64,000 nt of DNA from a virus. Lineage: Duplodnaviria > Caudoviricetes. The DNA is taken from IMG/VR virus record IMGVR_UViG_3300033475_000011, positions 1-64,000 of that record, one strand, 5' to 3'. Shown here in pieces: positions 9,026 through 59,960 of this stretch (its first letter is position 1; the number at the start of each line of letters is the position of its first letter). The notes under the pieces are model-generated. The model worked only from the letters and a program-made list of their open reading frames with translations. It did not search any database and was not told where the DNA came from. Made by a program: the position numbers and the translations under genes.

Positions 9026-11242
9026 CTACATCTTGCTGTTCTTCTCCACCGCCGCCCGCAGCTCAACCAGCCGGTAAGCTTCACGTTTCTGCCCGTTGAT
9101 CCTCGGCCTCGGCTCCGCCCTGTACACCGTCACCGCCGCCAGGGCTTTGGAGATGCGCCGCCCACCGGCTGTGGCGTTGGTGGGCCACCCGAGCGTGCCG
9201 GCCAACTCGAGCAGATCCGTGGTCGGCACATACGGGCCATCTCCATAGAGCAGGTCCGAAGCAGCGATCGCCTCGAGCAGGACCCGCGTGTCTTCAGGCA
9301 GGGTGGGGTCGATCCGGCGGACCGGCTGCACCGGTTCAACCGCTGGGTCTGCGGCGTAGAGCGCTTCGAGATTGTCGATCTCCGACTGTCGCGGATCCGT
9401 CTCGGGCGTCTCGTCGCGTCCAGTGACGCCCTCGCCGACTGTCGTCGCCGCCGGCTGACCCGGCACGGTGCGGACCGGGTTCCGGCACAGCAAGTGCAGA
9501 AAGTCCTGCTGGCCCTGCCGCGTCCACCGTTCCGGATAGTAGGTGAGCGATTCAGCGGTCCATTCGTCGATCGGGCCACAGTACTGGGCGTGCTCCACCG
9601 CAGTCTCCCGGATCCTGTCCTGAGTCAAATACAGGCCCTTCGCGAGGACCGGGCGGGAATACCCAGCAAACTCCATGTACAGGGCACCCACCGGGAGGGA
9701 CTCCACGTTGATCCCTGCGGTCTGTGAGTTGAACACGGCGTTCGCGTCGATCGTGCCTGCAGCTTGGAACCCAGCCCGGTAGCTGACCTGGGATTTCATG
9801 TCTCCGCCTTCGGCCCCGAGCATCGACACGGTGCCGCGCTGCGCCAGGAACACCACATGCAGTCCCTCCGATCGACCCAGCCGGATCAGCTTCAATAGCA
9901 GTTGTGCGAATGTGGCGGTCGGGCCCTTGTAGTTGTCCGGGTCTGGGCAGTCGTCAAGGGGGAACCGTTCAGTCGAGTCCAGTAGGTCCGGCGATTCATC
10001 AATGAAGATCACGATCTCGGGGTTTTCGGGGGTGGCATGCCACTTGTCGTCCCCGGTGATGGCTGCGGATTCCTGACGGCGCCGGACCACGGCGATGCTG
10101 TCCATCAGCATCATCCAGCCCTCGTATACGTCGGCCGCCCACCAGTCGATCACTGGTCGATCCGCTTTGCCTTGGAGGAACGGTTGCAGCCATGGCGCGA
10201 ACGCTCGAACAGGTTTCTCCCCGCAGATCATCCACGTCACACAGTCGGTGGATCGGGTGGTCTCATATGCGTGAGCGTTCAGGAAGGTGGTCTTCCCGCC
10301 TGTTGTGCGCCCGGCGACCATGCCATGGGGGTTCTCATGAACGTCCCACCCTAAATTGGTGCCGTCCACCGACACCGCAACCTCGATCGGGTCGTGGATC
10401 GACCGCGGCCCCGCGCGGTGGGGAAGTTCGATCGTTTTCGCCAGCACATCACTGGTGGGCACGATCAGTTCGGACTGGTGCGCGGCGACCGGGTTGGGTT
10501 TGACCTGGATGGACCCGGGACGGATCGGGTATGGGGTGGATCCAGAGGCGATCTTCTCGATCTCCGGGACACGGGCTGCGAGCCCAGCCACGTCAGGGGC
10601 TTTCTTGCCGTGGTTCAATGCCAGCGCGAACCCGTTCGGGAATTTCCGTTCCCCATTGACCCACCCGTCGTCGTTCAGGTCGGTGTTCACAGTGAGGTCG
10701 GGGCAGCCAGCGTCGGCGAGGATCTGTTCAAAGTCGTGCCGCTTTGTCTCGGCCCGTTTCGCGGCCCGCTCAGCCATCTCCTTCGCGTTGCGTTTGTCGG
10801 TCTTCCATCGGCACGCCGCGTACACCGGTCCCAGCAGGGCTGTGCCCGCGAGCAATGCGCCCATGGATCCCCATGACCAGGGGGTGTCGTAGGCGGCCCA
10901 CGTCACCCATGCCCCCGAGGCGGCGGCGGTGCCCATGGCGAACTCGGTGATCCTGCGGCGCCCGAACCGCTGATGTGCCCAGAAGCCGGCCCCGATCACC
11001 GCCGCGGCACTGGCCCCAGCCACGGTGGGCCATGGTAGGTGCGCCAGGTGCACCAAAGCACCAGTCGCGAGAGTGGCTTCGTCGGCATATCCGGTGTGGT
11101 CGAAGCTTTTGGGTGGGGCGCTCGAGTGCAGGAAATGCCGCCGCAACGAATGCGCCTTCGTCGGCCCCGGGGCCCGCGGCGTGCGGGGCTTGGCGGCCTC
11201 GGGGACCGGGGTGGGGGTGGGCTGCTGGGTGGGCGCCGACAT
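9026..11242 (-). CDS. traB: FtsK/SpoIIIE-family DNA translocase, actinomycete TraB-like
   Basis: N-terminal TM helices; Walker A AGRTTGGKTT; Walker B IVIFIDES; LIRLGRSEG..AQR; C-terminal wHTH-like tail (RINGQKREAY). Confidence 0.85.
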   Translation of the reverse strand: MSAPTQQPTPTPVPEAAKPRTPRAPGPTKAHSLRRHFLHSSAPPKSFDHTGYADEATLATGALVHLAHLPWPTVAGASAAAVIGAGFWAHQRFGRRRITEFAMGTAAASGAWVTWAAYDTPWSWGSMGALLAGTALLGPVYAACRWKTDKRNAKEMAERAAKRAETKRHDFEQILADAGCPDLTVNTDLNDDGWVNGERKFPNGFALALNHGKKAPDVAGLAARVPEIEKIASGSTPYPIRPGSIQVKPNPVAAHQSELIVPTSDVLAKTIELPHRAGPRSIHDPIEVAVSVDGTNLGWDVHENPHGMVAGRTTGGKTTFLNAHAYETTRSTDCVTWMICGEKPVRAFAPWLQPFLQGKADRPVIDWWAADVYEGWMMLMDSIAVVRRRQESAAITGDDKWHATPENPEIVIFIDESPDLLDSTERFPLDDCPDPDNYKGPTATFAQLLLKLIRLGRSEGLHVVFLAQRGTVSMLGAEGGDMKSQVSYRAGFQAAGTIDANAVFNSQTAGINVESLPVGALYMEFAGYSRPVLAKGLYLTQDRIRETAVEHAQYCGPIDEWTAESLTYYPERWTRQGQQDFLHLLCRNPVRTVPGQPAATTVGEGVTGRDETPETDPRQSEIDNLEALYAADPAVEPVQPVRRIDPTLPEDTRVLLEAIAASDLLYGDGPYVPTTDLLELAGTLGWPTNATAGGRRISKALAAVTVYRAEPRPRINGQKREAYRLVELRAAVEKNSKM

Positions 11243-27901: not shown

Positions 27902-29419
27902 GTGTTCTACCCTCACCCGTTCAACCTGAACACCTACTTGGCCCAGTTCGATCCCCGACTGCTCGCGGATCCTGAAGGCCGGCGCATCTCCACCAGACTC
28001 GACCCAGTCTTGTTCGGGCTGCTCTATGTCCCCCATCACCTTCGAGGCCCAGAGACAGGCGACTCCATCACCTTCTCCGAGTTCCACATCGAACTGGCTG
28101 AGTACGCCCGCGAGCTGGTGAAGCCAATCGGGCGTGTTCCGGCGGAACGGAGAGACGCCTTCATCGCTCCGCGTGGCGTCGGAAAGAGCACGTGGCTGTT
28201 TCTGATCGTGCCGTTGTGGCTCGCCGCGCACGGTCACCGGCAATTCATCGCGGCGTTTGCGAACGCGGCAACGCAGGCGCAAGACCACCTGATGACGTTC
28301 AAGCGCGAGCTGGACAACAACTCGCTGCTGCGCCAGGACTTCCCGGATTTGTGCACGGCCGCTCGACGACCGAAGGGCGCCGCAGTCGCGGACTCCCAAT
28401 CCATGTACGTGTCCGCAAGCAACTTCGTGTTCGCAGCCCGCGGCATCGACTCCGCCAACCTCGGCATGAAGATCGGGGAGCGCAGGCCATCCCACATCAT
28501 CCTCGACGACATCGAAGGCACCGAAGGCAACTACACGCCGACGATGAAGGAACACCGGCTCGCGACGCTGCTGTCCGGCATCCTGCCGTTGAACGTGTTC
28601 GCCTCCGTGACCATGGCCGGCACCGTCGCCATCCCGGGCGCGATCATCGACGACATCGCCGCGAAACAACGCGACGAGGAACACCCAGCTTGGGTGGAGG
28701 ACGAGAACTTCACGCCCCGCTACTACCCGGCGATCGTCACCAACCCGGACGGGACGGAGCGGTCCCTGTGGCCGCAGAAGTGGCCGCTGGAGTGGATGCA
28801 GTCACAGCGCCACTCGCGGCACTTCCAAAGCCAGTACATGAACAACCCGATGGCTGCGGATTCGGCGTTCTGGCGGGGCGAGGACTTCGTCTACCGCGAT
28901 GACATGCCCCTCACTGGCCAGCTGTTGTCGATCGACCCAGCAGTCACATCGAAAGAAAAGTCCGACTACACGGCGCTTGCGGTGATCGGGTTTTCCCGTC
29001 CCGCGATGGCGTGTGTAGTTCGGGACGCTTGGCAAGTTCGGCTTCCACCGGGTGAACCGTTGCGGCGCCGGGTGTTGGAGATCCTGGACGAGTACCCCGA
29101 GATTTTGGGGATCGTGGTCGAGGTCAACCAGGGCGGCGATCTGTGGAAGAACACGGTGTTGCATGACATGCCGTGCCCAGTGCAGACAGTGACCCAGTCT
29201 AGGCCGAAAGAAGAACGTGCCGGCTCGCTGTTGGCGAAGTACCAGCGCGGCCGGGTGTTCCACGCGAAGCGGATCCCCGCCCTTGAGGGTCAGATGATCC
29301 GGTTCCCGCTGGGCACCAACGATGACCTGATCGACGCCGTGGGAACTGGTGTCGACGTGTACTTGAAGACCGACAAGAAGCCTCGCCAGATTCGGCCTCA
29401 GACGGCCAGCTACATCTAG
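27902..29419 (+). CDS. terL: terminase large subunit
   Basis: Walker A APRGVGKST, Walker B IILDDIE, nuclease SIDPA...DYTA...DDLIDA. Confidence 0.93.
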   Translation: MFYPHPFNLNTYLAQFDPRLLADPEGRRISTRLDPVLFGLLYVPHHLRGPETGDSITFSEFHIELAEYARELVKPIGRVPAERRDAFIAPRGVGKSTWLFLIVPLWLAAHGHRQFIAAFANAATQAQDHLMTFKRELDNNSLLRQDFPDLCTAARRPKGAAVADSQSMYVSASNFVFAARGIDSANLGMKIGERRPSHIILDDIEGTEGNYTPTMKEHRLATLLSGILPLNVFASVTMAGTVAIPGAIIDDIAAKQRDEEHPAWVEDENFTPRYYPAIVTNPDGTERSLWPQKWPLEWMQSQRHSRHFQSQYMNNPMAADSAFWRGEDFVYRDDMPLTGQLLSIDPAVTSKEKSDYTALAVIGFSRPAMACVVRDAWQVRLPPGEPLRRRVLEILDEYPEILGIVVEVNQGGDLWKNTVLHDMPCPVQTVTQSRPKEERAGSLLAKYQRGRVFHAKRIPALEGQMIRFPLGTNDDLIDAVGTGVDVYLKTDKKPRQIRPQTASYI

Positions 29420-29435: not shown

Positions 29436-31070
29436 GTGGCTGTCCTGATGGAGCCCGAACCCCAACAGACCGCGGACGAAGACCTTGCCACGGCGTTGAA
29501 GGAGATGCGGCAGTGCCGCCATGGCTATGACAAGGCGGAGGACTACTACTGCGCTGATGTGCCGGAGATTTTCGCGTCCGCTCGCATGCGGCGGGCGATG
29601 CGTCGGAGTGGGATCAACTACCAGTTGAACCTCGCCCGGATTGTGGTCGAGTCGGTGGTTGACCGCCTCGAGGTATCCGCCATCACCTCCGACGACGAGT
29701 CCGGCCCGAATGACCTGATCCAGCAGGTGATGGAGGCCAACAAGTTCAAGTTGCAGGGCACGAACACGTTGCGGAAGGCATGTGAGTTCGGGGACGCCTA
29801 TGTGATCGTGTGGCCGAAGGAGAACGCGACCGCGCCGTACCGGCCTGAGGACATCGCGATCTGGTACCAGGACCCCCGCACCGTCAGGGTGTTCTACTCC
29901 GACGACAATCCGCTTGAGGTGGAGTTCGCGGCGAAGAAGTGGGAAGAGAACAGCCGCACCCGCATCGACCTGTACTACGCGGACCGCATCGAGTCTTACG
30001 TCAGCAAGAAGAACACGAAGGGCAAGCAGGCCGCCGACTTCGAACCCACCACCGGCACCAACCGGGACGACTCGGATGCGGACGAGGACGACGACAACCC
30101 CGCCCACATCACCAAGCACGACTTCGGCCAGGTCCCCGTCTTCCACTTCAAGACCACCGCGGACCAGTACGGGACACCGGAACACAAGGACTTCTTCCCT
30201 GTGACGGACATCATCCACAAGCTCGCAATCTCCCACATGGCGGGTGTGGACTACCAGTCGTTCCCGCAACGCTACGCCCTGATGGACGCCGACAGCGACA
30301 CGTCCGAAGCGGCACGGCTCGACGAGGGCCTGTACTCGTTTGAGATGCAGCAGGGCGGCACCACCGAGGACTACGGCACTGAAGGACGGTCCCAGTTCAA
30401 AGCAGACCCCGGCAGTGTGTGGATGGCGCCCGGCATCAAGGGATTCGGCCAGTTCGATGCAGCGGACCCTGCGAACTTCACGGATCCGATGGAGTTCTAC
30501 GTCCGCATGGGCGCCACCATCACCAACACGCCCTTGCACTACTTCGACCCCACCGGCGATGCCCCTTCTGGGGAGTCGTTGCGGACGGCGGAGGCGCCGT
30601 TCATCAAGAAGGTCGAGAACCGCAAGTTGTCGTTCGGGGACACGTGGCGTGAGGTGTTCCAATTCGTGCTCCAACTCCTGGGCAACGACAAGGCCAAAGT
30701 TGTTGTGCACTGGAAGCCGTCGTCGTCGAGCGATGACGAGTACTCGTGGCAGGTCGCACAGTTGCAGCAAGCCTCCGGCGTGCCGGTGGAACAGACGCTG
30801 TTGGAGCGTGGATACACCGCGGTCCAGGTCGCGGAATGGGAGGAGAACGGCCAGCAGGGGCTACCGCAGCGGGTTTCGTTGCTGTTGCAGGTGTCCCAGG
30901 CCATGGCCAACTTCACCACCGCCACCGCTGGCGGGTTGATCGGCGCCGACCAGGTCAACGGACTTGTGTTGAAACTGCTGGGACAGGCGGTGGACGATGA
31001 CAGCACCAACCCAGACACAGGTGCCGGCGAGCCCACCGACAAGCCTCTCGCCACAGATCGAGCGGCATGA
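29436..31070 (+). CDS. portal protein (SPP1 gp6-like)
   Basis: Follows terL; NLARIVVESVVDRL, G..YG.PE, PSGESLR. Confidence 0.9.
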   Translation: MAVLMEPEPQQTADEDLATALKEMRQCRHGYDKAEDYYCADVPEIFASARMRRAMRRSGINYQLNLARIVVESVVDRLEVSAITSDDESGPNDLIQQVMEANKFKLQGTNTLRKACEFGDAYVIVWPKENATAPYRPEDIAIWYQDPRTVRVFYSDDNPLEVEFAAKKWEENSRTRIDLYYADRIESYVSKKNTKGKQAADFEPTTGTNRDDSDADEDDDNPAHITKHDFGQVPVFHFKTTADQYGTPEHKDFFPVTDIIHKLAISHMAGVDYQSFPQRYALMDADSDTSEAARLDEGLYSFEMQQGGTTEDYGTEGRSQFKADPGSVWMAPGIKGFGQFDAADPANFTDPMEFYVRMGATITNTPLHYFDPTGDAPSGESLRTAEAPFIKKVENRKLSFGDTWREVFQFVLQLLGNDKAKVVVHWKPSSSSDDEYSWQVAQLQQASGVPVEQTLLERGYTAVQVAEWEENGQQGLPQRVSLLLQVSQAMANFTTATAGGLIGADQVNGLVLKLLGQAVDDDSTNPDTGAGEPTDKPLATDRAA

Positions 31071-33052: not shown

Positions 33053-34003
33053 ATGCCTGTCACTCAGAACAACTACAACCAGTGGATCCCGGTCGAATAC
33101 TCGCCGGATGTCATCCAGCGTGTCAAGCAGATGTCCGCGGTCATCGCGTATGGACAGAACGTGCCGATGTCCACTGAGTCGCGCTCCACCCCGCGGTCTG
33201 GTGGCGTCACCATGGGCGGTATCGCCAAGGGTGGCGACTACGGCCAGGACACCACCACGGCGAATGATGCGGTGTGGCTGTATGCGCAGAAGTACGGTGG
33301 CGCTGTGCCGATCGCCGAGGAAGACTTGAACGACAGCCTCGCTGACATCGTGAACGCGAAGACCAACGACGCGGCCACCTCGTTCGCGAAGCTGTTCGAC
33401 AACTCGTGCCTCGGGGTCACTGCGGCGAAGGCGGCCACGGGGTGGGCGTTCGACTCGCTGTACTACATCCTTTCGCAGTCTGACGCGTCCACCGGGTACA
33501 CCGCGAACGCGAACATCACCCAGACCGCCACGGGCGGCCCGACCCTCACCTACGCCAATACCCGCGCGCCTCTCGCGAAACTGGAGCAGGGCGACTACTT
33601 CGATCCGGGCGGCACCGTGGTGATCGCGCACCCCGCTTTCGCTGACGGTCTCCGTGGTGTGGTGGACAACCAGGGCCGGCCGATCTTCAACGAATCGACC
33701 AACGGTGTTGCTGGCGGTGGCCAGGGCACGACCCCGACCCTGTTCGGTCATCCGCTGCACTTCAGTCTGGGCGCGAAGACCGCCGCGACCCCGACGCCGA
33801 CCCCGACCGGTAACCCGCTCATGATCGTGTGCTCGGCGTCGTACCTGTACGTCGGGAACCGTGAGCCGCTGTCGGTGCAGGCCATCGATGGCAACACCGG
33901 CCTGGGCGCCTTGACAGACACAAGCTACCTCAAGTTCCGTGCCCGTAAGGCTTTCGCGCCTGGTCACGAGAACGCGTTTGCGATCCTGGAGTGGCGTCAG
34001 TAG
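33053..34003 (+). CDS. major capsid protein (HK97-fold)
   Basis: IPVEYS..VIQ, AQKYGG.VPI.EE.L.DS, FRARKAF. Confidence 0.9.
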   Translation: MPVTQNNYNQWIPVEYSPDVIQRVKQMSAVIAYGQNVPMSTESRSTPRSGGVTMGGIAKGGDYGQDTTTANDAVWLYAQKYGGAVPIAEEDLNDSLADIVNAKTNDAATSFAKLFDNSCLGVTAAKAATGWAFDSLYYILSQSDASTGYTANANITQTATGGPTLTYANTRAPLAKLEQGDYFDPGGTVVIAHPAFADGLRGVVDNQGRPIFNESTNGVAGGGQGTTPTLFGHPLHFSLGAKTAATPTPTPTGNPLMIVCSASYLYVGNREPLSVQAIDGNTGLGALTDTSYLKFRARKAFAPGHENAFAILEWRQ

Positions 34004-36797: not shown

Positions 36798-37114
36798 CCG
36801 GCAACCTGTGGGTGCTGGATCACCTCGATGACGTGCGTTCGGACTTCTCGGTGTTCCATCGGGTCGACGTGATCGAGGAGCTACCGGCACGCCGGTTCTT
36901 CACGTTGGCTCGCCGTCTCGCCCACTATCAGGGTGCGATGCGGAACATCGCCATCGTCGCGGTGCAGTCCACTGATCCGGAAGCCCCACCGCCGGCGCCT
37001 GTTTCGTCGCGTGAACCCGCCAACGATGACGCCATCGCCGCCAGTGTCGACCTGATGGCCATCCACCCCGTGTGGGGCTCGGTCGGCGCCTACGCCAAAG
37101 CACCCGCGGAATAG
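36776..37114 (+). CDS. frameshifted tail chaperone extension (gpGT)
   Basis: RSDFSVFHRV...LAHYQGAM. Confidence 0.75.
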   Translation, partial: PKILDAVAGNLWVLDHLDDVRSDFSVFHRVDVIEELPARRFFTLARRLAHYQGAMRNIAIVAVQSTDPEAPPPAPVSSREPANDDAIAASVDLMAIHPVWGSVGAYAKAPAE

Positions 37115-37131
37115 CCCTTTGGGAGGTCGTC

Positions 37132-40100
37132 GTGCCCGAAGGCGTCGAGATCGGCAAAGCCTATGTGACCGTCAACCTCGACGACCAAACCGCCAGCGAC
37201 TACGCACAGATCCGCACGAATCTGGAGCGGGAAACCCCGGTCACGGTCAAAGCGAAGGTCGTTTTCGACGCCGATCCGCTGGAGGAAACCCGGCGACAGA
37301 CCCGGGACGCGCCCCCCGTTGAAGTGCCGGTCAAGGCGAAGAACCCGATCGACGAAGCATGGCGGACACAGGTCCAGTCGTCGCTCAAGGCCGTCACCGG
37401 ACAGTCTCTCAAGATCCCGGCGACTCCGGACACGGCTGAATATCGTGCCCAGCTGGTTTCGACGATCACTTCGCTTCAGGAGCAGTTGAAGCAGGAGATC
37501 CCTGCGGATCTCGCTGAGGCAGACAGGTTCAAAGCCTCCGTTGAGACACTCGTTCGGGTCACTGAAGAAGAGGTCAATCTCCGCATCCCGGTGGATGTGG
37601 ACACCGACAGTGCGGTGCAGCACTTCCAGGAACTGTCGGATACTGCGGATGAGGAGACGCAGAAGACCGCGTCATCGGTCAACTCGTTGTCGCGGCGTGC
37701 GGCGATCGCGTTTGCCGCCATGTTCCTCGGCATGCCCACTGCGGCCGTCACGGCAACCGCCGCCACTGCCGCTGCTTTGGGTGGGATGGATGCGGCGTTC
37801 ATCGCCGCCGGCGCCGCGGCGTTGCGAAACAACGCCCAAGTGTCGGAGTCATGGCGTGGCCTCGGGGCGAACCTGAAGAGCGAAGCCGCATCATGGGCCC
37901 AGCCCTTGGTGCAGCCGTTCGCCGATTCGGCCGACGAAATCCAGGGCACTGTGGATCGGCTGGGGCCGATGATCCAGGCCGGGTTCTCGAGCAGCGTCCC
38001 TGCAGTGGGGATCCTCACCCAGTCGATCGACGATTTCGCGTCGCGCGCCATGCCCGGGGCGGTGATCGCCACCGAGAACGCGACTGCCCCTCTGCTGGGG
38101 CTGGAGTCAGCGTCCCAGCAGGCCGGTTCGGGTGTCACCGAGTTCTTCCTCAACCTGAGCCAGGGTGCGCAGTCATCGCAGGCGGTGATCTCCACTGCGG
38201 GTGGGATGATCCGGGACTTCGCGTCGTTCGCCGGCACCCTGTTCGCGAACCTCACCAACAACGGTGGCCCATCACTCAACGCGTTCCGCGGTGGGTTGCA
38301 GCAGGTGGAGCAAACCCTGCTGACCATCACCGCCAACGGGTCTGCGGTGTACGGGTTCTTCAACGGCTTCACCTCGAGCGTGTCCGGGATGCTCACCGTG
38401 GTGCGTGCCGCGGCATCGGTGCTGTCGCTCCTCCCGAACGAGGTGACTGGGTTCGCCGGTTCGTTCACCGCCACGTCGGCGATCGCGTCGAAGTTCGGTT
38501 TGGATGTGGGGAACGCGTTCTCCGGCATCAAGCAGAAGATCGACGACGCCGATGGGGCCGGGTCGAAGTTCCGGGCCGGTGTGTCCGGGCTCGTTGAGGG
38601 CGCGTTGAGCCCCGCCACGTTGGCGGTAACTGGCCTGTCGGCTGTGTTGATGATCTTGGGTCAGCACGAGCAGGACGTGGCCGCGCAAACCGCCGCCCAC
38701 ACCGGGCGTGTGCAGGACCTGACGGCGGCTTTGCAGGCATCCAACGGCGCGATCGACTCGAACGTCACCAAAACCGCGGCGATGGCGCTGCAGGATTACG
38801 ACGCCGGAGACGGAAAACGGAACCTGCTCGCCGACGTGAACAACCTGGTCGGCCCGCAGGGTGTCCCGCTCCTCACCCAAGCCTATTTGGGTAACACGGA
38901 CGCACAGGCCCAGTTGGCGCAACAGCTGCAGACCACGATCGCCGGGCACCGCGAGCAGGTGAACATGCTCAACGCGGCGAAGATGCCGTGGGACGACCAC
39001 ATCAAAATGATCGACGGTGTCGTCTACAGCTACGACAACACCGCCCTGTCCGCGCAGCAGCTGTTGAACATCATCGGCGCTGAGGGTGGCACGTTCCAGC
39101 AAGCGTCGTCGAACGCCGGCTTGCTGTCGCAGGCCATCAACGGTGTGTCGGCCGCGAACGTGGGTGCCGCGGTCGCAGGACTCACGGGTACGCAGGCCAT
39201 CCAGTCGCAGCTGTCGGTGTCGAACGCCGCAGCGGCGATCAGTGACCGGCTGCAGCAGGCGTATCAGCAGGAGGTGCAGGCGTCCCAGTCGGTGGCGTCG
39301 GCACAGCACAGTCTCGCCCAGTCGGGTCAGGCTGTGACGAACGCTCAGCACAGTGTGGAGCAGGCCCAGATGGGTGTCGCGTCGGCGTCCCAGGCTGTGG
39401 CGAATGCCGAGCACAGTGTGGAGCAGGCCCAGCGGTCTCAGCAGCAGGCGTTGCAGGGTGTCACCACGGCTCAGAGGTCGTACACGCAGGCGCAGCAGGA
39501 TGCGGTGCAGGCGGAGAACGACCTCAATAAGGCGCGTGAGCAGGCTGTGCAGGACTTGAAGGACCTGCACCTGCAGTTGGCGGACCAATCCGTGTCGGTG
39601 GGGCAGGCTCAGGTGAGCTTGTTCGATGCCCAAAACCAGGCCGCCGGCCTCGGGGTGACTCTGGCGAATGCGCAAGCGGTGTCGTCGCAGCAGATCACCA
39701 CCGCCAACGAGGACCAAGTCAAGGCCGCGCTGAACCTGCTGTCGGCACAGAACCAGCTGAATGACGCCCAAAACCAGAACTCGAAGCTGCAAACGCAGGT
39801 CAACGAAGCCGACGCGGCTGGTGTCGAGGGCGCGGCCGGGGTTGTGGCAGCGAAGAAGGCGTTGGCGTCGGCGAACGACCAGGTCACTGCCGCGGCGCAA
39901 GCAGTGACGCAGGCACAGCAGCAGGTCACCGACGCGAACTGGAACCTACAACAAGCCGACATTGGTTTGGCGAACGCGCACCAGGGTGTTCGGGACGCGG
40001 CGTGGAGTTTGCAGCAGGCCGAGCTTGGTGTGCGGGATGCGCAGTGGAGCCAAAACCAGGCTGCGATCCAGTTGAAAACGTCGCAGATCGCGCTACGTCA

Positions 40101-41352
40101 GGCGCAGGACGCGGCGTCCACGTCACTGGACACGAACACCGCAGCCGGCCGCCAGAACCTCGCTGCCTTGATGAGTCTGTGGGATGCGATCCAGAAGCAG
40201 GGTGGCCCGGTCCAGGACCAGTACAAGAAGCTGGTGGACGAGACCGCGGCTTCGTTCGGTTGGTCCGCTGATCAGGCCGATGCGTATCTGAAGAAGCTGG
40301 GACTGATCCCCGCAGACTTCCGTTACAGCGTCACCGCGGTCGGTCAGGTTGATCTAGGTGCGATCGGGTCGGCGATCAACAGTGTCGCCGGCCAGAACTT
40401 TTGGCACTTCGCCGACGGCGGGCATGTTCGGGGCGCTGGCGGGCCGAAGGACGACAAGATCAATGCGAAGCTGTCGAACAACGAGTTCGTGCAGCCCTCC
40501 GACGCGGTGGATCACTACGGCGTGGGGTTCATGGAGGCGGTGCGCACCAAGACCTACCCGAAGGGTGGGGACGGTGCGTCCCTGCCGGGGTTCGCTACCG
40601 GCGGCTTGGTGAGCATGCTCGACGGTGAGGCTCAGCTGGCGGTCACCGGAACCGCCTACCAGTCCGCGGTGAACGCGCTCGAAGTCGGTGGACTGCCGCA
40701 CCCTCCGGGACTCCCGGCATATGTGCCGCCGGACGCGACAACCGGCGCGATCTCGTATGTTGCCGGGTCTGGTGTTGCCCAGTGGGCTCCGCAGATCCTT
40801 CAGGCCCTGTCGATGCTGGGTCAACCGGCGTCGTGGTTGGGCACGGTTGAGCGGCGCATGGCCCAGGAGTCGGGCGGCAACCCCAACGTCGTCAACAAGT
40901 GGGACAGCAACTGGGCGAAGGGCACGCCGTCAGTCGGCCTGATGCAGGTGATTGGCCCGACGTTCAGGTCCTACGCCGGCCAGTTCGGCGGCACCGGACC
41001 GTTCTCGTACGGGGTGTCGGTTGATCCGCTGGCGAACATCTTCGCCGGCCTCAACTACGCGCTCCACAGGTACGGCAGCCTGTCTGCGCTGAACCGGCCC
41101 GGTGGCTACGACTCGGGCGGGTTCATGCTCGACAACCTGGCACTCAACTCCACCGGGAAACCGGAAATGGTGCTACCACCGGGGTTGACCGACACGATGA
41201 TGTCGATCCACAACATGGTGCAGCAGCAGACCCGGACCACCGGCGGCACGGCGGCCGGGACGCAGGTGTCGGTGAACGTATCGACGGCGGCGACAGACCC
41301 GTACGAGACTGCGCAAGCCACGGCACGCGAAATCGCGTGGGTGCTGCGGTGA
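37132..41352 (+). CDS. tape measure protein with C-terminal lytic transglycosylase domain
   Basis: About 1400 aa, A/Q-rich repeats; QESGGNP...GLMQVIGPTF..Y...DPLANI. Confidence 0.93.
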   Translation: MPEGVEIGKAYVTVNLDDQTASDYAQIRTNLERETPVTVKAKVVFDADPLEETRRQTRDAPPVEVPVKAKNPIDEAWRTQVQSSLKAVTGQSLKIPATPDTAEYRAQLVSTITSLQEQLKQEIPADLAEADRFKASVETLVRVTEEEVNLRIPVDVDTDSAVQHFQELSDTADEETQKTASSVNSLSRRAAIAFAAMFLGMPTAAVTATAATAAALGGMDAAFIAAGAAALRNNAQVSESWRGLGANLKSEAASWAQPLVQPFADSADEIQGTVDRLGPMIQAGFSSSVPAVGILTQSIDDFASRAMPGAVIATENATAPLLGLESASQQAGSGVTEFFLNLSQGAQSSQAVISTAGGMIRDFASFAGTLFANLTNNGGPSLNAFRGGLQQVEQTLLTITANGSAVYGFFNGFTSSVSGMLTVVRAAASVLSLLPNEVTGFAGSFTATSAIASKFGLDVGNAFSGIKQKIDDADGAGSKFRAGVSGLVEGALSPATLAVTGLSAVLMILGQHEQDVAAQTAAHTGRVQDLTAALQASNGAIDSNVTKTAAMALQDYDAGDGKRNLLADVNNLVGPQGVPLLTQAYLGNTDAQAQLAQQLQTTIAGHREQVNMLNAAKMPWDDHIKMIDGVVYSYDNTALSAQQLLNIIGAEGGTFQQASSNAGLLSQAINGVSAANVGAAVAGLTGTQAIQSQLSVSNAAAAISDRLQQAYQQEVQASQSVASAQHSLAQSGQAVTNAQHSVEQAQMGVASASQAVANAEHSVEQAQRSQQQALQGVTTAQRSYTQAQQDAVQAENDLNKAREQAVQDLKDLHLQLADQSVSVGQAQVSLFDAQNQAAGLGVTLANAQAVSSQQITTANEDQVKAALNLLSAQNQLNDAQNQNSKLQTQVNEADAAGVEGAAGVVAAKKALASANDQVTAAAQAVTQAQQQVTDANWNLQQADIGLANAHQGVRDAAWSLQQAELGVRDAQWSQNQAAIQLKTSQIALRQAQDAASTSLDTNTAAGRQNLAALMSLWDAIQKQGGPVQDQYKKLVDETAASFGWSADQADAYLKKLGLIPADFRYSVTAVGQVDLGAIGSAINSVAGQNFWHFADGGHVRGAGGPKDDKINAKLSNNEFVQPSDAVDHYGVGFMEAVRTKTYPKGGDGASLPGFATGGLVSMLDGEAQLAVTGTAYQSAVNALEVGGLPHPPGLPAYVPPDATTGAISYVAGSGVAQWAPQILQALSMLGQPASWLGTVERRMAQESGGNPNVVNKWDSNWAKGTPSVGLMQVIGPTFRSYAGQFGGTGPFSYGVSVDPLANIFAGLNYALHRYGSLSALNRPGGYDSGGFMLDNLALNSTGKPEMVLPPGLTDTMMSIHNMVQQQTRTTGGTAAGTQVSVNVSTAATDPYETAQATAREIAWVLR

Positions 41353-49656: not shown

Positions 49657-50637
49657 ATGACCGAACCCACTCGTGCCGCCGGCAAGCTTGGGCGCCGCCC
49701 CAACGACCCCGACAAGCCCCGGCTGCGGCTCGCCCCGCGGCTCGACACCACTGTCCCCGCGCCGCCCGCGCTCGTCGACTGGCTCGACAAAGTCCAGTCG
49801 TGGCCCATGTACGCCAACGACCGCTACGGCGACTGCGTCTGGGCCATGATCGGCCACGCCATCGAGGCATACACCACCTACGGCAAGGGCGACACTGTCA
49901 CGATCTCCGAAGCCGATGTGCTCAAGAGCTATAGCGACGTGACCGGGTTCAACCCCGATGATCCGTCCACCGACCAGGGAACCGTCATCCAGGACGCCCT
50001 GAACTACTGGAAGACGACCGGTGTCGGCGGGCATCAGATCAAGGCGTTCGCACAGGTCGACCACACCAACCCGGACGAGGTCAAAGCCGCACTGAACCTG
50101 TTCGGTGTGCTGCTGGTGGGCGTGAACTTCCCCGCTTCGGCGATGGACCAGTTCAATGCCGGCCAGCCGTGGGACGTGCTCGACAACGACGGCGGCATCG
50201 AGGGCGGTCACGCCATCCACGTCGGACACGCCGACACTGACAACGTCACCTACAACCTCGTCACCTGGGGCGCTGTCGAAGGCATGACCTCGGCATGGTG
50301 GGCCGAGTACGTCGAGGAAGCGTGGATCGCGGTCACTGACGACTGGCTGTCCGAGGCTGGTACGAGTCCGGGAGGGTTGGACCTGTATGGGCTCGGTGAG
50401 GACTTGTCGGCGCTGACTGGTGAGCCCAACCCGTTTCCCGCCCCCGAGCCCACGCCGGTTCCTGCACCGACTCCTACCCCTGAGCCTCCGGCCCCGTCGC
50501 CGGAGCCGGTAGACGACCTGGAGGCCGATCAGAAGTTCGCGGGCACTCTGCATCACTTTGTGCGGAACCCGTGGCTGTACAGCCCCCACCACCTCGCCCT
50601 GGTTGCCAGGAAGTGGCTCGACGCCAGGGGGTTGTAG
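49657..50637 (+). CDS. papain-like cysteine peptidase
   Basis: NDRYGDCV (Cys), GGHAI (His), TWG. Confidence 0.75.
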   Translation: MTEPTRAAGKLGRRPNDPDKPRLRLAPRLDTTVPAPPALVDWLDKVQSWPMYANDRYGDCVWAMIGHAIEAYTTYGKGDTVTISEADVLKSYSDVTGFNPDDPSTDQGTVIQDALNYWKTTGVGGHQIKAFAQVDHTNPDEVKAALNLFGVLLVGVNFPASAMDQFNAGQPWDVLDNDGGIEGGHAIHVGHADTDNVTYNLVTWGAVEGMTSAWWAEYVEEAWIAVTDDWLSEAGTSPGGLDLYGLGEDLSALTGEPNPFPAPEPTPVPAPTPTPEPPAPSPEPVDDLEADQKFAGTLHHFVRNPWLYSPHHLALVARKWLDARGL

Positions 50638-51588
50638 ATGAGGTGGGCTGACTACGCAACCGGCCGGCCCCCGGCCGCGGCAGTGAAGGCAGCCGGGTTC
50701 GGCGGGGTGATCCGGTACGTCGGTATCGGTGGTGGGGGCACGCTGCCGTACAAGCGGATCACCGCCGCCGAATACCAGGACCACGTTCGGAACGGGTTGC
50801 AGGTGCTGTTGGTGTGTGAAGCGTCCACCACGGACGCGTGGGGTGGCTACAACGCCGGTGTCACCAACGCCAAGGCAGCCCTCAATGACGCCCGCGCGCT
50901 GAGGATCCCCGACAGTGTCGGTATCGCCGCCGCTGCGGATGCGCACGCAGCGAACCAGGCTCAGATCGATGCTGCTGTGGCCTACGCACGCGGTTTCCAA
51001 GACGTGCTGGGGAAGGCCCGCACCGGCTTCTACGGGTTCTCCGAGACCGTGACCGCTGTCCGCAACGCGGGGATCGGGTCTTGGTACTGGCGGTGTGGCT
51101 CCCAGCCCAGCGCGGCGGAGAAGACCTGGACGCACCTGTGGCAGCGCAACGACGGAACCACGAAGGTCGCCGGGACCACAGTCGACATCAACGAGCAGTA
51201 CATCCCCATCACAGCGCAGGAGGACGACTTGACCCCCGACCAGAGCGCGAAACTGGACGCGATCTACAACCAGCTCACCGGCTCCACCACGACGGGTGAG
51301 TACCCGGGCTGGCCGCAGCTCGACGGCAAAACTGTCGTGGACTACCTGGGAGAACTGCCTGACAAGGTGTGGGACTACCAGCTCAAGACGCCCGGCTGGG
51401 CCGACCCGAACCGTGTGGCCGCGGCTGGCGCGATCGTCGGCAATGCCGATGTGCACACCAACGCCATCCTCGACGCGATCGGGAAGGTCACTGTCGGTGG
51501 TGTCGACGTGAACAGTCTCGCCGCAGCGCTTGTGACCGCGCTCGGCCCAGAGGTGGCTAAGGCCATCGGAGAGAAACTGGTGGCCTGA
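50638..51588 (+). CDS. endolysin, DUF1906/GH25-like glycoside hydrolase
   Basis: AAVKAAGFGGVIRYV, AAADA, TGFYG, LWQ...VDIN. Confidence 0.85.
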   Translation: MRWADYATGRPPAAAVKAAGFGGVIRYVGIGGGGTLPYKRITAAEYQDHVRNGLQVLLVCEASTTDAWGGYNAGVTNAKAALNDARALRIPDSVGIAAAADAHAANQAQIDAAVAYARGFQDVLGKARTGFYGFSETVTAVRNAGIGSWYWRCGSQPSAAEKTWTHLWQRNDGTTKVAGTTVDINEQYIPITAQEDDLTPDQSAKLDAIYNQLTGSTTTGEYPGWPQLDGKTVVDYLGELPDKVWDYQLKTPGWADPNRVAAAGAIVGNADVHTNAILDAIGKVTVGGVDVNSLAAALVTALGPEVAKAIGEKLVA

Positions 51589-52956: not shown

Positions 52957-53433
52957 TCACATCTTCTTGCCGCACCGGGTGCAGCGCCATTCGCCCTTCA
53001 CCTCAGAGTAGGTGTGCCCTCCCACACCGGCGGGGCACGAGTCGTCCTCTGAGACGATCTCGGCGCACACGTCAACAACCTGCTCGCGGGACACCCGGAT
53101 GCTCGCGTACACGGACGAACCCTTCCGCGCTGTCGACCGGTGCACGTTCGCCGGGTGGAGCAGTAGTTCGTTCTGCTTCTGTGCCCAGTCGTCTGCTTCT
53201 TTGCCGACCTCGAGGAGCTGGGCGCGCATCCAGTCGGCCACCTCATCAGGGGATTGGAGCACCGCCACGCTGGGCGTCGCCTTCCGCGCTTCCGCCCCTG
53301 CCCGCTTCCGGTCCCCATCGCGCACGTCACGTCGCTCTACGTATCCCTGCCACATGCGGCACATCATCCCGTGCCGCGCTGAGGTGGTCAACGCCGCGGT
53401 CGACAGATGGGGCGTGTCGGAGGCGGCGGTCAC
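52957..53433 (-). CDS. hypothetical protein with C-terminal C/H Zn motif (start uncertain)
   Basis: CPAGVGGH...CTRC. Confidence 0.5.
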   Translation of the reverse strand: MTAASDTPHLSTAALTTSARHGMMCRMWQGYVERRDVRDGDRKRAGAEARKATPSVAVLQSPDEVADWMRAQLLEVGKEADDWAQKQNELLLHPANVHRSTARKGSSVYASIRVSREQVVDVCAEIVSEDDSCPAGVGGHTYSEVKGEWRCTRCGKKM

Positions 53434-53494
53434 AACATAATCTGTATTATGATTGTGGTTGTAAAACAGAGTTTTGGATCTTGAGGAGATGGCG

Positions 53495-54265
53495 ATGCGT
53501 GACGCGCTAGGCGATCGCATGAAGGAGCAATACGAGAACCGCACCAGATATCTACTCCCGCGTCGCACCTACTCGGTGATCCGGCTCGACGGTAAGGCGT
53601 TCCACACCTACACCCGTGGTCTGCAACGCCCGTACGACCAGCAGCTCATGGACGACATGGCCGCTACTGCTCGCTTCCTGTGCGAGACCATCCAGGGCGT
53701 CGCGCTGGCGTACACCCAGTCAGACGAGATAAGCATCCTGACCGTCGACTTCGGCACCCCGAAGACCCAAGCATGGTTTGACGGGAACGTGCAGAAGGTC
53801 GTGTCGATATCGGCGTCGATGGCCACCGCGAAGTTCAACGCGCTCCGCCCTGGCAAGCTGGCGTACTTCGATTCGCGGGTGTTCACCATCCCCGATCCCG
53901 TTGAGGTCGTGAACTACCTCATCTGGCGACAGAAGGACGCCACTCGCAACTCCATCTCTATGGCCGCTCAGTCCCAGTTCTCGGCGAAGCAGCTCCATGG
54001 CAAGTCCTCCAGTGAGATGCAGGACATGCTGTGGTCGGAGCACGGGATCAACTGGAATGACTACGATCCAAGGTTCAAGCGCGGGACCGTGGTCTATCCA
54101 GAGCGGGTGATCGGGTCCGTAGAGTACGTCGACAAGCGAACTGGCGATACGAGGACTGCCGACAACGTTGAGCGCAGGGTGTGGACCATCGACGCGGCAC
54201 CTATCTTCACACGCGACGCTGACTTCCTAGCCTCCTACCTACCGCAGGCCACGGTGGCGGCGTGA
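53495..54265 (+). CDS. thg1: tRNA-His guanylyltransferase / Thg1-like protein (TLP)
   Basis: VIRLDGKAFH, YTQSDEIS, FDG..QK..S..AS, FDSRVF, Y..WRQ.DA.RNSI. Confidence 0.93.
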   Translation: MRDALGDRMKEQYENRTRYLLPRRTYSVIRLDGKAFHTYTRGLQRPYDQQLMDDMAATARFLCETIQGVALAYTQSDEISILTVDFGTPKTQAWFDGNVQKVVSISASMATAKFNALRPGKLAYFDSRVFTIPDPVEVVNYLIWRQKDATRNSISMAAQSQFSAKQLHGKSSSEMQDMLWSEHGINWNDYDPRFKRGTVVYPERVIGSVEYVDKRTGDTRTADNVERRVWTIDAAPIFTRDADFLASYLPQATVAA

Positions 54266-55341
54266 CCAGCCTCGTCCCCACCTCTCCGGTTCCCGCGCCA
54301 GGTGGCGATGAGGACGGCTGGCGCGACACTCTCCAGCTCGTCGGGCAGTGGCTTGTCGAGTACAGCGGCAACAGCCGCGCCACCTATGCCGACGCCATCG
54401 GCTGGCCCTACACCGCCACCGGCAAATGGCGCGGATACGGCGCAGTCCGGCACTCCCTAGGCTGGCTGTCCTGGTGCTACACCCACAGTTTGCACGTCTT
54501 CGACGCCAAACGCCTACATGTCCTCGCCTGGGTCGATGAACTCAACCATTCGCGCCACCCTGACACCGGGAAACCGCTTTCGAAGCGGTCCCGCGCACAC
54601 ATGGTCGCGACCGCCTCAAGCTTCTACACGTGGTGCATGCGGGAGGGGCACACCGAAGCCAACCCCGTGTCGCTCGTTGACCGGAAGAAGCAGGGACTAC
54701 GGACCAGCAAGGACAAGTCCCCCACCCGTTCCCTGTCCCGCCGCGAGGCGCACGCGATGATCCGCGCAGCCGACGCCGATCCTGTCGAGGCGGTACGAGC
54801 GAGGACCGCGGCACTGATCGCGCTTCTCTTCGAGGTCGGCCCCCGGGTTTCCGAAGTATGCAATGCCACCCTCGCTGACATGTACGTGCAAGACGGCCAC
54901 CGCGTCCTACACGTCGAACTGAAGGGGAAGAAAGACCACGAGTATGCACTACCGGATCCGGTGTGCCGACGTATCGACGCGTACCTAGCATCGCGCCGCG
55001 ACATGGACTTGCTGCCCGCGCGACGTGGCCAGGTCAACCACGCGACCTCGCCACTCTTCGCCACCGCGACAGGGAACCCGATCAGCCGGACCGAGGTGTG
55101 GACACTGATCAACCGTATTGCGAAGCTAGCCGGCATCGACCAGCCGGAGACCGTCCACCCGCACGTTGGCCGCCACACCTACATCACCGAAGCGCGCCGT
55201 CAGGGACGACAAACCGCTGACATTCAAGCTTCGGTCGGGCACGAGTTCGCTTCCACCACGGATCGGTATGGGCTGCACATCATCAATCTGGAGAAGAGCC
55301 CGGCCTACGGTGTCGCTGCCGCGTTCGAGGAGGACGAATAG
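54262..55341 (+). CDS. XerC/D-like tyrosine recombinase
   Basis: GPRVSEV (R), LKGKK (K), HPHVGRH (HxxR), STTDRY (Y). Confidence 0.9.
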   Translation: MTSLVPTSPVPAPGGDEDGWRDTLQLVGQWLVEYSGNSRATYADAIGWPYTATGKWRGYGAVRHSLGWLSWCYTHSLHVFDAKRLHVLAWVDELNHSRHPDTGKPLSKRSRAHMVATASSFYTWCMREGHTEANPVSLVDRKKQGLRTSKDKSPTRSLSRREAHAMIRAADADPVEAVRARTAALIALLFEVGPRVSEVCNATLADMYVQDGHRVLHVELKGKKDHEYALPDPVCRRIDAYLASRRDMDLLPARRGQVNHATSPLFATATGNPISRTEVWTLINRIAKLAGIDQPETVHPHVGRHTYITEARRQGRQTADIQASVGHEFASTTDRYGLHIINLEKSPAYGVAAAFEEDE

Positions 55342-55362
55342 CGCAGGCAGGGCGGAGGGCGT

Positions 55363-55470
55363 CTACTCCCCTTCGGAGTCGGCGTGGTCCTGGTCGATCG
55401 GATCGGGCTCGAACACCTCGCCAGTCTCGAGGTCCCAGATGTCGCCGTTGCTGGACTCGAAGAAGCTCAC
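55363..55470 (-). CDS. 35-aa very acidic peptide
   Basis: MSFFESSNGDIWDLETGEVFEPDPIDQDHADSEGE; GTGA overlap with the upstream ORF. Confidence 0.45.
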   Translation of the reverse strand: MSFFESSNGDIWDLETGEVFEPDPIDQDHADSEGE

Positions 55471-55688
55471 GGCTCCAACTCCCGAGTCGTGGCCTTCTCA
55501 ACATCGGCCGCATACGTGACGAGCTCAGAAGCCAGATCGGTCAACAGGAACCCCAACGTTCGCAGTTCGTCTGCGGGTAGGTGGCCGTGTTCTGCCTGGT
55601 AGTCCAGCATCCGCTGCGCCGCACCACCCATGCCCTTGTTGACCTTCGACAGCATGTAGAGGAGCCGGTACTCCTCGGAGAGGCTCAC
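55467..55688 (-). CDS. hypothetical helical protein
   Basis: GTGA overlap. Confidence 0.55.
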   Translation of the reverse strand: MSLSEEYRLLYMLSKVNKGMGGAAQRMLDYQAEHGHLPADELRTLGFLLTDLASELVTYAADVEKATTRELEP

Positions 55689-58415: not shown

Positions 58416-58613
58416 GGCGGTCTCCTTGTTGTTGGCTTCGCCGGTTCGTCGCCGAGGAGGGTGAGGGTGTTACGAACGGGGCTGCCAGTTCTCCCATTAA
58501 CGTCCCACTTTGGGGCCATATTGGGACCGATCTACACCCACGTAGACCTAAGTTGCATTCGTGAACCCCAACGTAGACCTACGTGCGCCAACGATTCTTT
58601 TCACTAGTGGATG

Positions 58614-58651
58614 AACCGAAGGGTTGTTGGTTCGAGTCCAACCGGGGGAGC
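58614..58651 (+). other. att core: 3' half of a tRNA-Asn(GTT)-like sequence (attP-type)
   Basis: AACCGAAGGGTTGTTGGTTCGAGTCCAACCGGGGGAGC with no 5' half; next to the integrase. Confidence 0.8.
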
Positions 58652-58683
58652 AAAACCCCAGGTCAGAGACCTGGGGTTCTTTC
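58652..58683. terminator. terminator after att core
   Basis: ACCCCAGGTC-AGA-GACCTGGGGT followed by T-rich tail. Confidence 0.75.
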
Positions 58684-58718
58684 ATGTCTCGAACGCGACA
58701 CACCGGTTCTCCCACAAA

Positions 58719-59960
58719 CTACCCACCTTCAGCAGCCCCGGACTCCCCCACCATGCCCTCCAACGCGGACGCCGCCACGTCGTTCGCCGCGAACTTCTTC
58801 CTGTAGTGACGCTCCACCACCGCCACCGTGTTGCCCAACTGGTCGGCGATCATGGTGGTCGGCAACCCGGCCTCCTTCAACACGTCGGTCACCGTCTTGC
58901 GCCACACGTGTGACGTGATGCCCGGGTAGCCGATCTCCACGAACGCCTCCTGCAACCGGTTGATCACAGTCGACGGATCCAGCCACCGGCCCTTGTTTGA
59001 CGGGAAGATCGCCCCACCCCCCGATGCCAGCTTCAGGCGCTGCCACGTCGGAACAGACCACTCCGGCACCCGCAGATCCAGTTCGGGCTCGCCACTCTTC
59101 CGGAGCGGTTCCCGCACGATCCCCTCACCGGTGACCCGAACCAGGTGGTAGCGGACCAGCACCCGCCGGTTCACGGGATCGATGTCGTCGCCGTCGAGGG
59201 CGAGGAGTTCCCCGATGCGCACACCGGTGGAGAGGGCACAGTCATGCACGTCCGGGAGTTTCTTCCACACCCTGGCGCGGCCCCCGAGACTGCGTCCGCG
59301 CTTGTCGTACTGTTTGCGCTCGGCCAGGGCGATGAGCTTGGCCTTCACGTCGGCACGCTCGGTCGCGGTGAGTGCCCGCACCTCCTTCTTCTCCCCCGCA
59401 ACGAGCCGGCCGACCGACTTCACCGGGTTGATCCGCATCGCCTGGTTACGGATCGCATAAGCGCAGATACCGGACAGCACGGCCCGAACCGAGTGGGCTG
59501 AGGAGTAGCTGCGTTCATCCCGCGCGCGCTGGATTAGCCTGTCGAAGCTGCTGGGCATGTGTTCGGCCTCGCGGGCCAGGAGTTCCCCGATGGCGGGTTT
59601 GACCCAGTTCCGCACATAGCCCCCGTACATGCGGACGCTACTTTTGGCCATGCCGCCCTGGTTGGCGACACGGGTAACCTCAGCAAGCCACAGGTCCGCG
59701 ATCGTGGACATCCGGGTGTCGCCGTTGATTGCCCCGGAGGTAGCTTCGTTCGCGAGGATCGTCATGCGATTCTTCAGCGCGTTGACGGCTTTGGTTTTGG
59801 TGGGGCCGGTGCGGCGAACCTCTTTGCGGCTGCCGTCGGCGATCCGCATGTAGGCGCGGGCCTCCCAGCGGGTGTAGGTGGTGCCGTCCCGTTTGTGTCG
59901 GGTTTCGGAGCGGGTGGTGATCTCCCCGTAGCTTCCGATCGGGGTTGGTGGCCTCGCCAT
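58719..59960 (-). CDS. int: tyrosine integrase
   Basis: GVRIGELLAL, SHVWRK, QLGN, RHY; N-terminal arm-binding domain. Confidence 0.93.
   Translation of the reverse strand: MARPPTPIGSYGEITTRSETRHKRDGTTYTRWEARAYMRIADGSRKEVRRTGPTKTKAVNALKNRMTILANEATSGAINGDTRMSTIADLWLAEVTRVANQGGMAKSSVRMYGGYVRNWVKPAIGELLAREAEHMPSSFDRLIQRARDERSYSSAHSVRAVLSGICAYAIRNQAMRINPVKSVGRLVAGEKKEVRALTATERADVKAKLIALAERKQYDKRGRSLGGRARVWKKLPDVHDCALSTGVRIGELLALDGDDIDPVNRRVLVRYHLVRVTGEGIVREPLRKSGEPELDLRVPEWSVPTWQRLKLASGGGAIFPSNKGRWLDPSTVINRLQEAFVEIGYPGITSHVWRKTVTDVLKEAGLPTTMIADQLGNTVAVVERHYRKKFAANDVAASALEGMVGESGAAEGG

Follow-up and report, generated by a model that had tools for sequence, protein, structure and literature searches.

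A Thg1-like protein gene in the operon of a Xer-like recombinase and a predicted dif-like site of an actinobacterial phage

Cre/loxP, with a site of 13-8-13 layout, serves multimer resolution of the phage-plasmid P1. Multimer resolution is also listed as a phage-plasmid function (PMC11652158), and the XerS/difSL, XerH/difH and archaeal XerA/dif (PMC2958812) systems each combine one Xer-like recombinase with an adjacent palindromic site that has AT-rich inner arms and a 6-bp centre, which is also the arrangement of the locus described here. In some actinophages with two tyrosine integrases, the role of the second enzyme has been left open (PMC13097055, PMC4982277). Thg1-like proteins (TLPs) of the Bacillus thuringiensis type (BtTLP) carry out tRNA 5'-end repair and G-1 addition (PMC3061083), and phage TLPs have been proposed to be part of an RNA-repair counter-defence in jumbo phages (PMC7824862). 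Here we analyze a locus of a soil-actinobacterial phage in which a TLP gene directly precedes the gene of a Xer-like tyrosine recombinase, Int1. It lies in IMG/VR virus record IMGVR_UViG_3300033475_000011 (G000, 80,751 bp), the first 64 kb of which constitute the window of 64,000 nucleotides; IMG/VR classes the ends of the record as linear and CheckV estimates it to be 88% complete. We propose, with a probability of about 0.58, that Int1 and a 28-bp palindrome upstream of it form a multimer-resolution module in which the TLP gene is a passenger.

The dif-like site and the Int1 recombinase

The locus comprises the following features:
52957-53433, minus strand: divergent open reading frame (ORF), function not assigned; GC content at third codon positions (GC3) 0.76; candidate starts GTG 53433 and ATG 53367/53355
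53430-53457, no strand: 28-bp dif-like site TCACAACATAA-TCTGTA-TTATGATTGTG of 11-6-11 layout, predicted Int1 target, overlapping the divergent promoter region
53483-53488, plus strand: Shine-Dalgarno sequence GAGGAG of the TLP gene, 6 nt before ATG 53495, read from the sequence
53495-54265, plus strand: TLP, 256 amino acids, 3'-5' nucleotidyltransferase by homology (Pfam, PHROG and 4KGK matches)
54262-55341, plus strand: Int1, Xer-like tyrosine recombinase of 359 amino acids (PF00589), the start overlapping the TLP stop (GTGA)

An inverted repeat at about 53431-53457, which the initial annotation had pointed out, was recovered with 11 pairs and one bulge (DNA hairpin z = -2.6) and is best read as a dif-shaped 11-6-11 site. 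Its core, CATAA-N6-TTATG, is present once in the window (0.00 expected from 100 shuffles), and ATAA-N6-TTAT occurs exactly once in the 80.7 kb of G000. A search of 53458-55600 and of the remaining genome found neither a second site nor a half-site, and the TLP gene and the gene pair are not flanked by repeats. The second site that would define a recombinase-mobilised cassette, as had been suggested for this locus, is thus missing.

Int1 matched the Phage_integrase family (PF00589) with 83 bits, and its catalytic set R195, K221, H301, R304, H327 and Y336 was invariant in 25 homologues, so that by its residues it is a catalytically complete tyrosine recombinase. The solved structures closest to Int1 are XerD, XerA, a XerC-like recombinase and XerH. 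Against the NCBIfam models, Int1 scored 113 bits with XerD (TIGR02225, cut-off 329.6), 106 with XerC (TIGR02224, cut-off 335), 98 with XerA (cut-off 220) and 58 with XerS (cut-off 267). Because the XerD, XerC and XerA models rank first yet stay far below their cut-offs, Int1 is classed by similarity as Xer-like and not as XerC or XerD proper. An alignment of the 25 homologues showed a conserved V/M-T-x-L-V-P N-terminus, and since the homologues begin with MTxLVP at the same point, GTG 54262 is supported as the true start of Int1.

While a single-sequence scan of IMG/VR with Int1 gave no matches, an alignment-based scan found three relatives, G001, G002 and G003, on uncultured phage contigs of 97-100 kb, with 65%, 59% and 43% identity to Int1, respectively; G003 has direct terminal repeats. 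A search of a plasmid collection added a homologue with 41% identity on pAmyja1 of Amycolatopsis japonica (NZ_CP008954.1), a circular replicon of 92.5 kb. This replicon, which PLSDB types only as non-mobilizable, encodes a terminase, portal, tail tube, tape measure, GH25 lysozyme, ParB-domain proteins and WhiB. Because terminase, portal, tail and lysozyme genes stand on a circular replicon, pAmyja1 is, as judged from its gene content, a phage-plasmid. Four more distant homologues (30-38% identity) are encoded on circular plasmids of Verrucosispora, Micromonospora, Pseudonocardia and Streptomyces; the S. decoyicus plasmid, like pAmyja1, carries phage terminase and structural genes. On pAmyja1 and the P. 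broussonetiae plasmid, the Int1-family gene is the sole tyrosine recombinase gene.

ATAA-N6-TTAT was present once per genome in G000, G001, G002, G003 and pAmyja1 (80-100 kb each), and in all 5 genomes the site precedes, by 35-41 nt, the first start codon in an operon that ends in the Int1 homologue. Otherwise these genomes share a handful of weakly similar genes, among which Int1 is the best conserved. An 11-6-11 palindrome of the ATAA type was also found upstream of the 4 distant plasmid homologues, so that a site with ATAA/TTAT inner arms precedes 9/9 of the Int1-family genes examined; as a negative control, seven high-GC IMG/VR loci with unrelated recombinases had no such site. The arms differ between lineages: two recombinases with 78% identity share the arm TGCCTCCATAA, and recombinases with 65% identity or less have different arms. 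Because the site is conserved in position and its arms track the relatedness of the recombinases, we read it as the cognate site of its recombinase. The 28-bp palindrome is therefore the probable target of Int1, and by this comparison the conserved unit is dif-like site plus recombinase, not site plus TLP.

The Thg1-like protein and the variable slot

The TLP frame is open from TTG 53474 and ends with TGA 54263-54265; its start is likely ATG 53495. Pfam searches matched the protein to Thg1 (PF04446, 92.5 bits, cut-off 29.2) and Thg1C (PF14413, 34.8 bits, cut-off 26.3), which, together with the Xer proteins as best relatives of Int1, bore out the Thg1-like and Xer-like identities given by the initial annotation. 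The TLP also matched PHROG 4717 ('tRNA-His guanylyltransferase') at 4e-84 and B. thuringiensis TLP 4KGK at 3e-57, whereas eukaryotic Thg1 structures were matched at only 1e-13 to 1e-15. Its acid motifs are intact, with D32 in IRLDG and D77/E78 in QSDEIS, and align with the motifs of BtTLP 4KGK (RxDG, SDE). The HINNLYN anticodon-recognition motif is absent, and the segment WRQKDATRNSIS stands where Thg1 has THINNLYN. The metal-binding carboxylates, which in human Thg1 are D29, D76 and E77, are thereby present. By these features, the first gene encodes an intact TLP of the bacterial TLP clade and not of the eukaryotic Thg1 type. By homology, the protein would add missing 5' nucleotides to tRNAs in a templated manner, either as 5'-end repair or as G-1 addition to tRNA-His, and its substrate could be host tRNAs or tRNA-like elements of the phage itself. 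Either tRNA repair or a counter-defence against host tRNA damage, the two roles suggested in the initial annotation, may be its function here.

The TLP stands alone in G000. ARAGORN detected zero tRNA genes in the remainder of the 80,751-bp record as well as in the window, for which the lack of a complete tRNA gene had already been noted, and searches of G000 for RtcB, CCA-adding enzyme and RNA ligase found none. A temperate phage without tRNA genes is an unusual setting for a TLP, and a clean one for asking what phage TLPs do.

The stretch between the site and the recombinase gene, occupied by the TLP gene in G000, has a different content in each of the replicons with cargo:
G000: TLP
G001: none
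G003: none
P. broussonetiae plasmid: none
G002: a mini-ORF of 13 codons followed by a DUF6221 gene, the stop of which forms a GTGA overlap with the recombinase start
pAmyja1: five small ORFs
M. zamorensis plasmid: three ORFs
S. decoyicus plasmid: one ORF

The slot proteins are mutually unrelated except for one pair in two Micromonosporaceae plasmids, and a TLP was found nowhere in G001, G002 or G003. The mini-ORF of G002 (L165 4595-4636, MEAIIFIDIAKYA) starts 38 nt after the dif-like site, and its stop overlaps the DUF6221 start as ATGA; it may be a leader peptide or a coupling device.

The overlap of the thg1 stop with the recombinase start as GTGA was confirmed, with the TLP stop at 54263-54265 and the Int1 GTG at 54262. 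All nine Int1-family genes start with [A/G]TG-A (Met-Thr or Met-Ser) with or without a preceding gene, and therefore a TGA stop is built in for any upstream frame. In addition, four-base overlaps are common in G000, where they join at least 10 of 80 same-strand pairs. The GTGA overlap is thus a product of the conserved start of the recombinase and of a common junction type, and is not special. The coupling of the TLP gene to a recombinase gene, which the initial annotation had noted and left without an explanation, stands as an observation and is explained by the slot that the conserved site-recombinase operon offers to variable cargo.

A survey for thg1-xer pairs, proposed in the initial annotation, found no relative of Int1 or Int2 (the second tyrosine recombinase of G000, described below) in the fetched flanks of 161 TLP loci, which were taken from genomes, IMG/VR and metagenomes. 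These loci cover TLPs of up to 69% identity and leave out the closest TLP relatives (70-82% identity), which are mostly on Logan contigs, as are likewise the Int1 relatives at 66-77%. For two of the metagenomic TLPs an Int1 homologue is linked to a contig of the same size. TLP P0009, 75% identical to the G000 TLP, and Int1 homologue P0150 each have a 5,887-bp contig as their sole or longest one, and TLP P0212, 97% identical to P0009, and Int1 homologue P0139 are both on a 110,940-bp contig; P0139 and P0150 are 50% identical. The pair thus seems to recur, and it would be wrong to call it unique to this genome. If the contigs are the same, the pair recurs and the TLP gene moved between divergent recombinase modules, which hints at cargo exchange.

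Such an exchange could be a property of the operon itself, which might serve as a gene-exchange platform in which accessory genes move between divergent recombinase modules and are expressed, coupled, from the site's own promoter. We entertain this because near-identical TLPs beside 50%-identical recombinases would be the trace of such traffic, and consider it quite unlikely. The operon might also be an integron-like platform for gene capture, with accessory genes such as that of the TLP being inserted or exchanged by the recombinase or by recombination at the site; of the readings considered, this one comes closest to the recombinase-mobilised cassette of the initial annotation. The presence of zero to five cargo genes between site and recombinase would fit, as would the contrast between the TLPs P0009 and P0212 and the Int1 homologues that are apparently on the same contigs. 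However, each genome has one site, and downstream of the cargo and of the pair neither a second nor a hybrid site is present; the overlap of cargo and recombinase genes leaves no room for an intervening site; and integron-integrase models gave Int1 22-29 bits, far under their cut-offs of 265-435. Moreover, ordinary phage mosaicism accounts equally well for variable slots, and co-residence on the two contigs is read only from their identical sizes. We regard gene capture as improbable.

Mechanistic cooperation between the TLP and Int1, in which, for example, the TLP would process a nucleic-acid end needed for recombination, draws on the translational coupling and the possible recurrence of the pair, and on nothing more. 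The TLP does not accompany the Int1 homologues that have the same site in G001, G002, G003, pAmyja1 and the four plasmids, and TLPs elsewhere occur without Int1. It is established for tyrosine recombinases as a family that they do not require nucleotidyl transfer. Cooperation is hence hardly credible, and the preferred reading of the TLP gene remains that of cargo in the operon of the recombinase.

Proposed function and the second integrase

According to the reading that we favour, the 28-bp dif-shaped palindrome, a short leader and Int1 would make up a self-contained module for site-specific recombination. A homodimer of Int1 probably occupies the two arms, with strand exchange taking place over the 6-bp centre. 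With one site per replicon, this reaction would turn replicon multimers into monomers, in the way that Cre/loxP acts on P1 and XerS/difSL on streptococcal chromosomes. We favour multimer resolution because Cre/loxP, XerS/difSL and plasmid resolution systems are likewise built with a single simple site beside the recombinase gene. Two hallmarks of such resolution are present, namely exactly one site per replicon in the 5 genomes and the occurrence on circular extrachromosomal replicons. The stretch from leader to recombinase would be a slot that holds, depending on the replicon, zero to five unrelated genes, and the TLP gene, co-transcribed and translationally coupled with the recombinase gene, would nevertheless be an independent accessory gene. 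Int1 probably also autoregulates the operon, because the spacing between the site and the first start codon is fixed and the site overlaps promoter-like elements; the operon, with the TLP gene in it, is likely on whenever the replicon is present.

A minus-strand promoter-like match, TTTACA-17-GATTAT (53437-53465), overlaps the dif-like site and faces the divergent ORF 52957-53433, for which no Pfam or PHROG match was found, and -10-like hexamers (TATTAT/TATGAT) lie inside the right arm. The GC3-rich minus-strand ORF and the minus-strand match are consistent with the divergent control region that had been proposed at this position, and Int1 binding could control both directions from the dif-like site. 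The repeat may be only a transcriptional operator or promoter element of this region, with Int1 acting elsewhere. The constant spacing of 35-41 nt to the first start codon in five genomes, the minus-strand match over the repeat and the hexamers within its right arm would suit an operator. Against this, an 11-6-11 layout with ATAA/TTAT inner arms is a Xer/dif signature, the arms follow the relatedness of the recombinases and the genome has no other candidate site; the operator and recombination roles are, in addition, mutually compatible. An exclusive operator role is therefore very improbable, and multimer resolution by Int1 at this site stays the preferred explanation.

To judge whether Int1 could be an integrase, the second tyrosine recombinase gene of G000 has to be considered with its surroundings:
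58600-58652, plus strand: 3'-end fragment of a tRNA, with the T-arm GGTTCGAGTCC and the acceptor 3' strand, read from the sequence; predicted attP core
58719-59960, minus strand: Int2, classical tyrosine integrase of 413 amino acids (PF00589, PHROG 1)

The tRNA fragment is the probable attP core of Int2, and Int2 is probably the integration enzyme of the phage. Beside Int2, a perfect hairpin of the terminator type, CCCCAGGTC-AGA-GACCTGGGG with a T-run, comes after the tRNA fragment (58600-58700), as is usual for an attP. G002 and G003 also have a second recombinase, in an open frame of about 425 amino acids. Given the tRNA-type attP beside Int2 and the second recombinase in G002 and G003, Int1 would therefore not be needed for integration.

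Nonetheless, Int1 and the dif-like site could be a second integration system, in which the site is a simple attP for a dif-like or palindromic site of the host, in the manner of IMEX but with the phage's own recombinase, and in which the TLP gene is expressed in lysogeny and stands at the prophage end. In its inner arms the site agrees with predicted actinobacterial dif sites, and its centre is two bases from that of Actinosynnema and Rhodococcus dif. The predicted dif sites of Actinosynnema and Saccharopolyspora are AATGCCGATAA-TCTACA-TTATGTTAAGT and AGTGCCGATAA-TGTACA-TTATGTTAAGT, respectively (Kono et al. 2011 supplement). Compared with these predicted Pseudonocardiaceae sites, the phage site has the inner ATAA/TTATG in common and a partly similar centre, and its outer arms are different. 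Because the match is limited to the inner ATAA/TTATG and part of the centre, the site of G000 fits a site of its own recombinase rather than a copy of the host dif. An identical 16-bp core with the TCTGTA centre, which also speaks for integration, is present in canonical-looking dif sites of low-GC viral contigs. In these IMG/VR contigs (L214-L216, L233, L235, L237, L238, L241, L246, L249 and L251), the sites read [G/T][A/T]TTCGCATAA-TCTGTA-TTATGTTAA[A/T]T, and the contigs are probably dif-integrating (IMEX-type) elements. Weak Int1 relatives in cultured Arthrobacter and Gordonia phages are, moreover, annotated as integrases. On the other side, Int2 with its tRNA-type attP already gives G000 an integrase, the module is found on circular extrachromosomal plasmids, in two of them as the sole tyrosine recombinase, and the outer arms are palindromic, lineage-specific and unlike those of host dif, with centres that differ from the predicted host dif. 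A role of Int1 in integration is thus unlikely, though to be taken seriously, and we prefer multimer resolution.

Several points weigh against multimer resolution with the TLP gene as a passenger. No ParA or ParB was found in G000, which has its own integrase, so that a need of this phage for multimer resolution is unexplained. The palindrome could be only an operator or promoter, as discussed above. With G000 at an estimated 88% completeness, a second site or more RNA-repair genes could lie in the missing part. Finally, the equal contig sizes, as the sole link, point to two further metagenomic contigs that would carry both a TLP and an Int1 homologue, and the TLP-Int1 association may thus be more than a one-off.

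Genome context and comparison with known systems

By its gene layout, G000 (GC content about 64%) is a temperate actinobacterial siphovirus, and its closest protein relatives point to hosts of the Pseudonocardiaceae type. It has two tyrosine recombinase genes, Int1 and Int2. Its other recognizable genes are:
860-2311: serine recombinase
9026-11242: FtsK/TraB-like gene
27902-29419: terminase
29436-31070: portal
33053-34003: major capsid
37072-41352: 1,426-amino-acid ORF of tape-measure size
49657-51588: endolysin-type genes

The phage was assembled four times, with Int1 identical and the TLP at least 90% identical among assemblies. Between the Int1 end and the left part of the genome, no shared direct repeats of 14 nt or more were found, nor any of att type. 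Because of the lack of att-type repeats and because the tRNA-type attP is intact, the record represents the free phage form and not an integrated prophage. An overlap between the contig ends was not found in G000, and the natural reading frames at both ends do not join. The ORFs at the ends (1-80 and 80670-80751) resemble parts of one Cys-rich protein without joining in frame. The record thus probably lacks a short stretch between its ends, consistent with the completeness estimate. Megablast and blastn searches against cultured phages gave nothing useful, and an Rfam search of 55.3-61.2 kb returned a chance miRNA match only.

Altogether, the apparent coupling of RNA repair and recombination is replaced by a simpler picture, that of a Xer-like module common to otherwise unrelated actinobacterial phages, phage-plasmids and plasmids. 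The 28-bp site and its recombinase are a compact pair that may be of use as a genetic tool in high-GC bacteria.

The TLP has the same two-domain architecture as BtTLP (PDB 4KGK/4KGM; Rao et al. 2011, PMC3061083), with the acid motifs RxDG and SDE and a TLP-type WRQxDAxxNSIS segment instead of the eukaryotic HINNLYN. Unlike BtTLP, it is encoded by a temperate actinophage without tRNA genes, inside a recombinase operon, and its substrate and role are predictions. It belongs to the same family as the phage TLPs of PHROG 4717 from large Bacillus, Caulobacter, Mycobacterium and jumbo phages (Iyer et al. 2021, PMC7824862), with 44-48% identity to the Bacillus phage proteins. Most of these phages are large, and in jumbo phages the TLP is reported to occur together with other RNA-repair genes (PMC7824862), which G000 does not have.

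Like G000, the Arthrobacter cluster FF phages (PMC13097055) and Gordonia phage Bowser (PMC4982277) have two tyrosine integrases, and the module proposed here suggests concretely what the unexplained second tyrosine integrase of some actinophages might do (PMC13097055, PMC4982277). The cultured Arthrobacter phage Isolde (L256) and Gordonia phage Jablanski (L257) are laid out like G000, with the immunity region flanked by a small tyrosine recombinase gene that points rightward and, a few genes away, a larger integrase gene. Their small integrases differ from Int1, with which they share about 28% identity, and no ATAA-type palindrome was found upstream of them; Jablanski has a 10/11 palindrome, GGTGCAGGTCA-GAGACC-TGATCTGCACC, some 110 nt upstream of the second integrase.

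In integron, pdif-module and IMEX cassettes the cargo is bounded by two recombination sites, which is not the case in G000. The XerS, XerH and XerA systems reside at the chromosome terminus, whereas the G000 module is found on phages and plasmids, scores far under the family cut-offs and can have genes between site and recombinase. With Cre/loxP of P1 and plasmid resolution systems, the module shares a single simple inverted-repeat site upstream of a tyrosine recombinase gene on phage or plasmid replicons. It differs from Cre/loxP in that Int1 shows no detectable sequence similarity to Cre, the layout of the site is 11-6-11 instead of 13-8-13, and the activity of the module is a prediction. 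It is, accordingly, a variant of the known single-recombinase systems of the Xer/Cre type.

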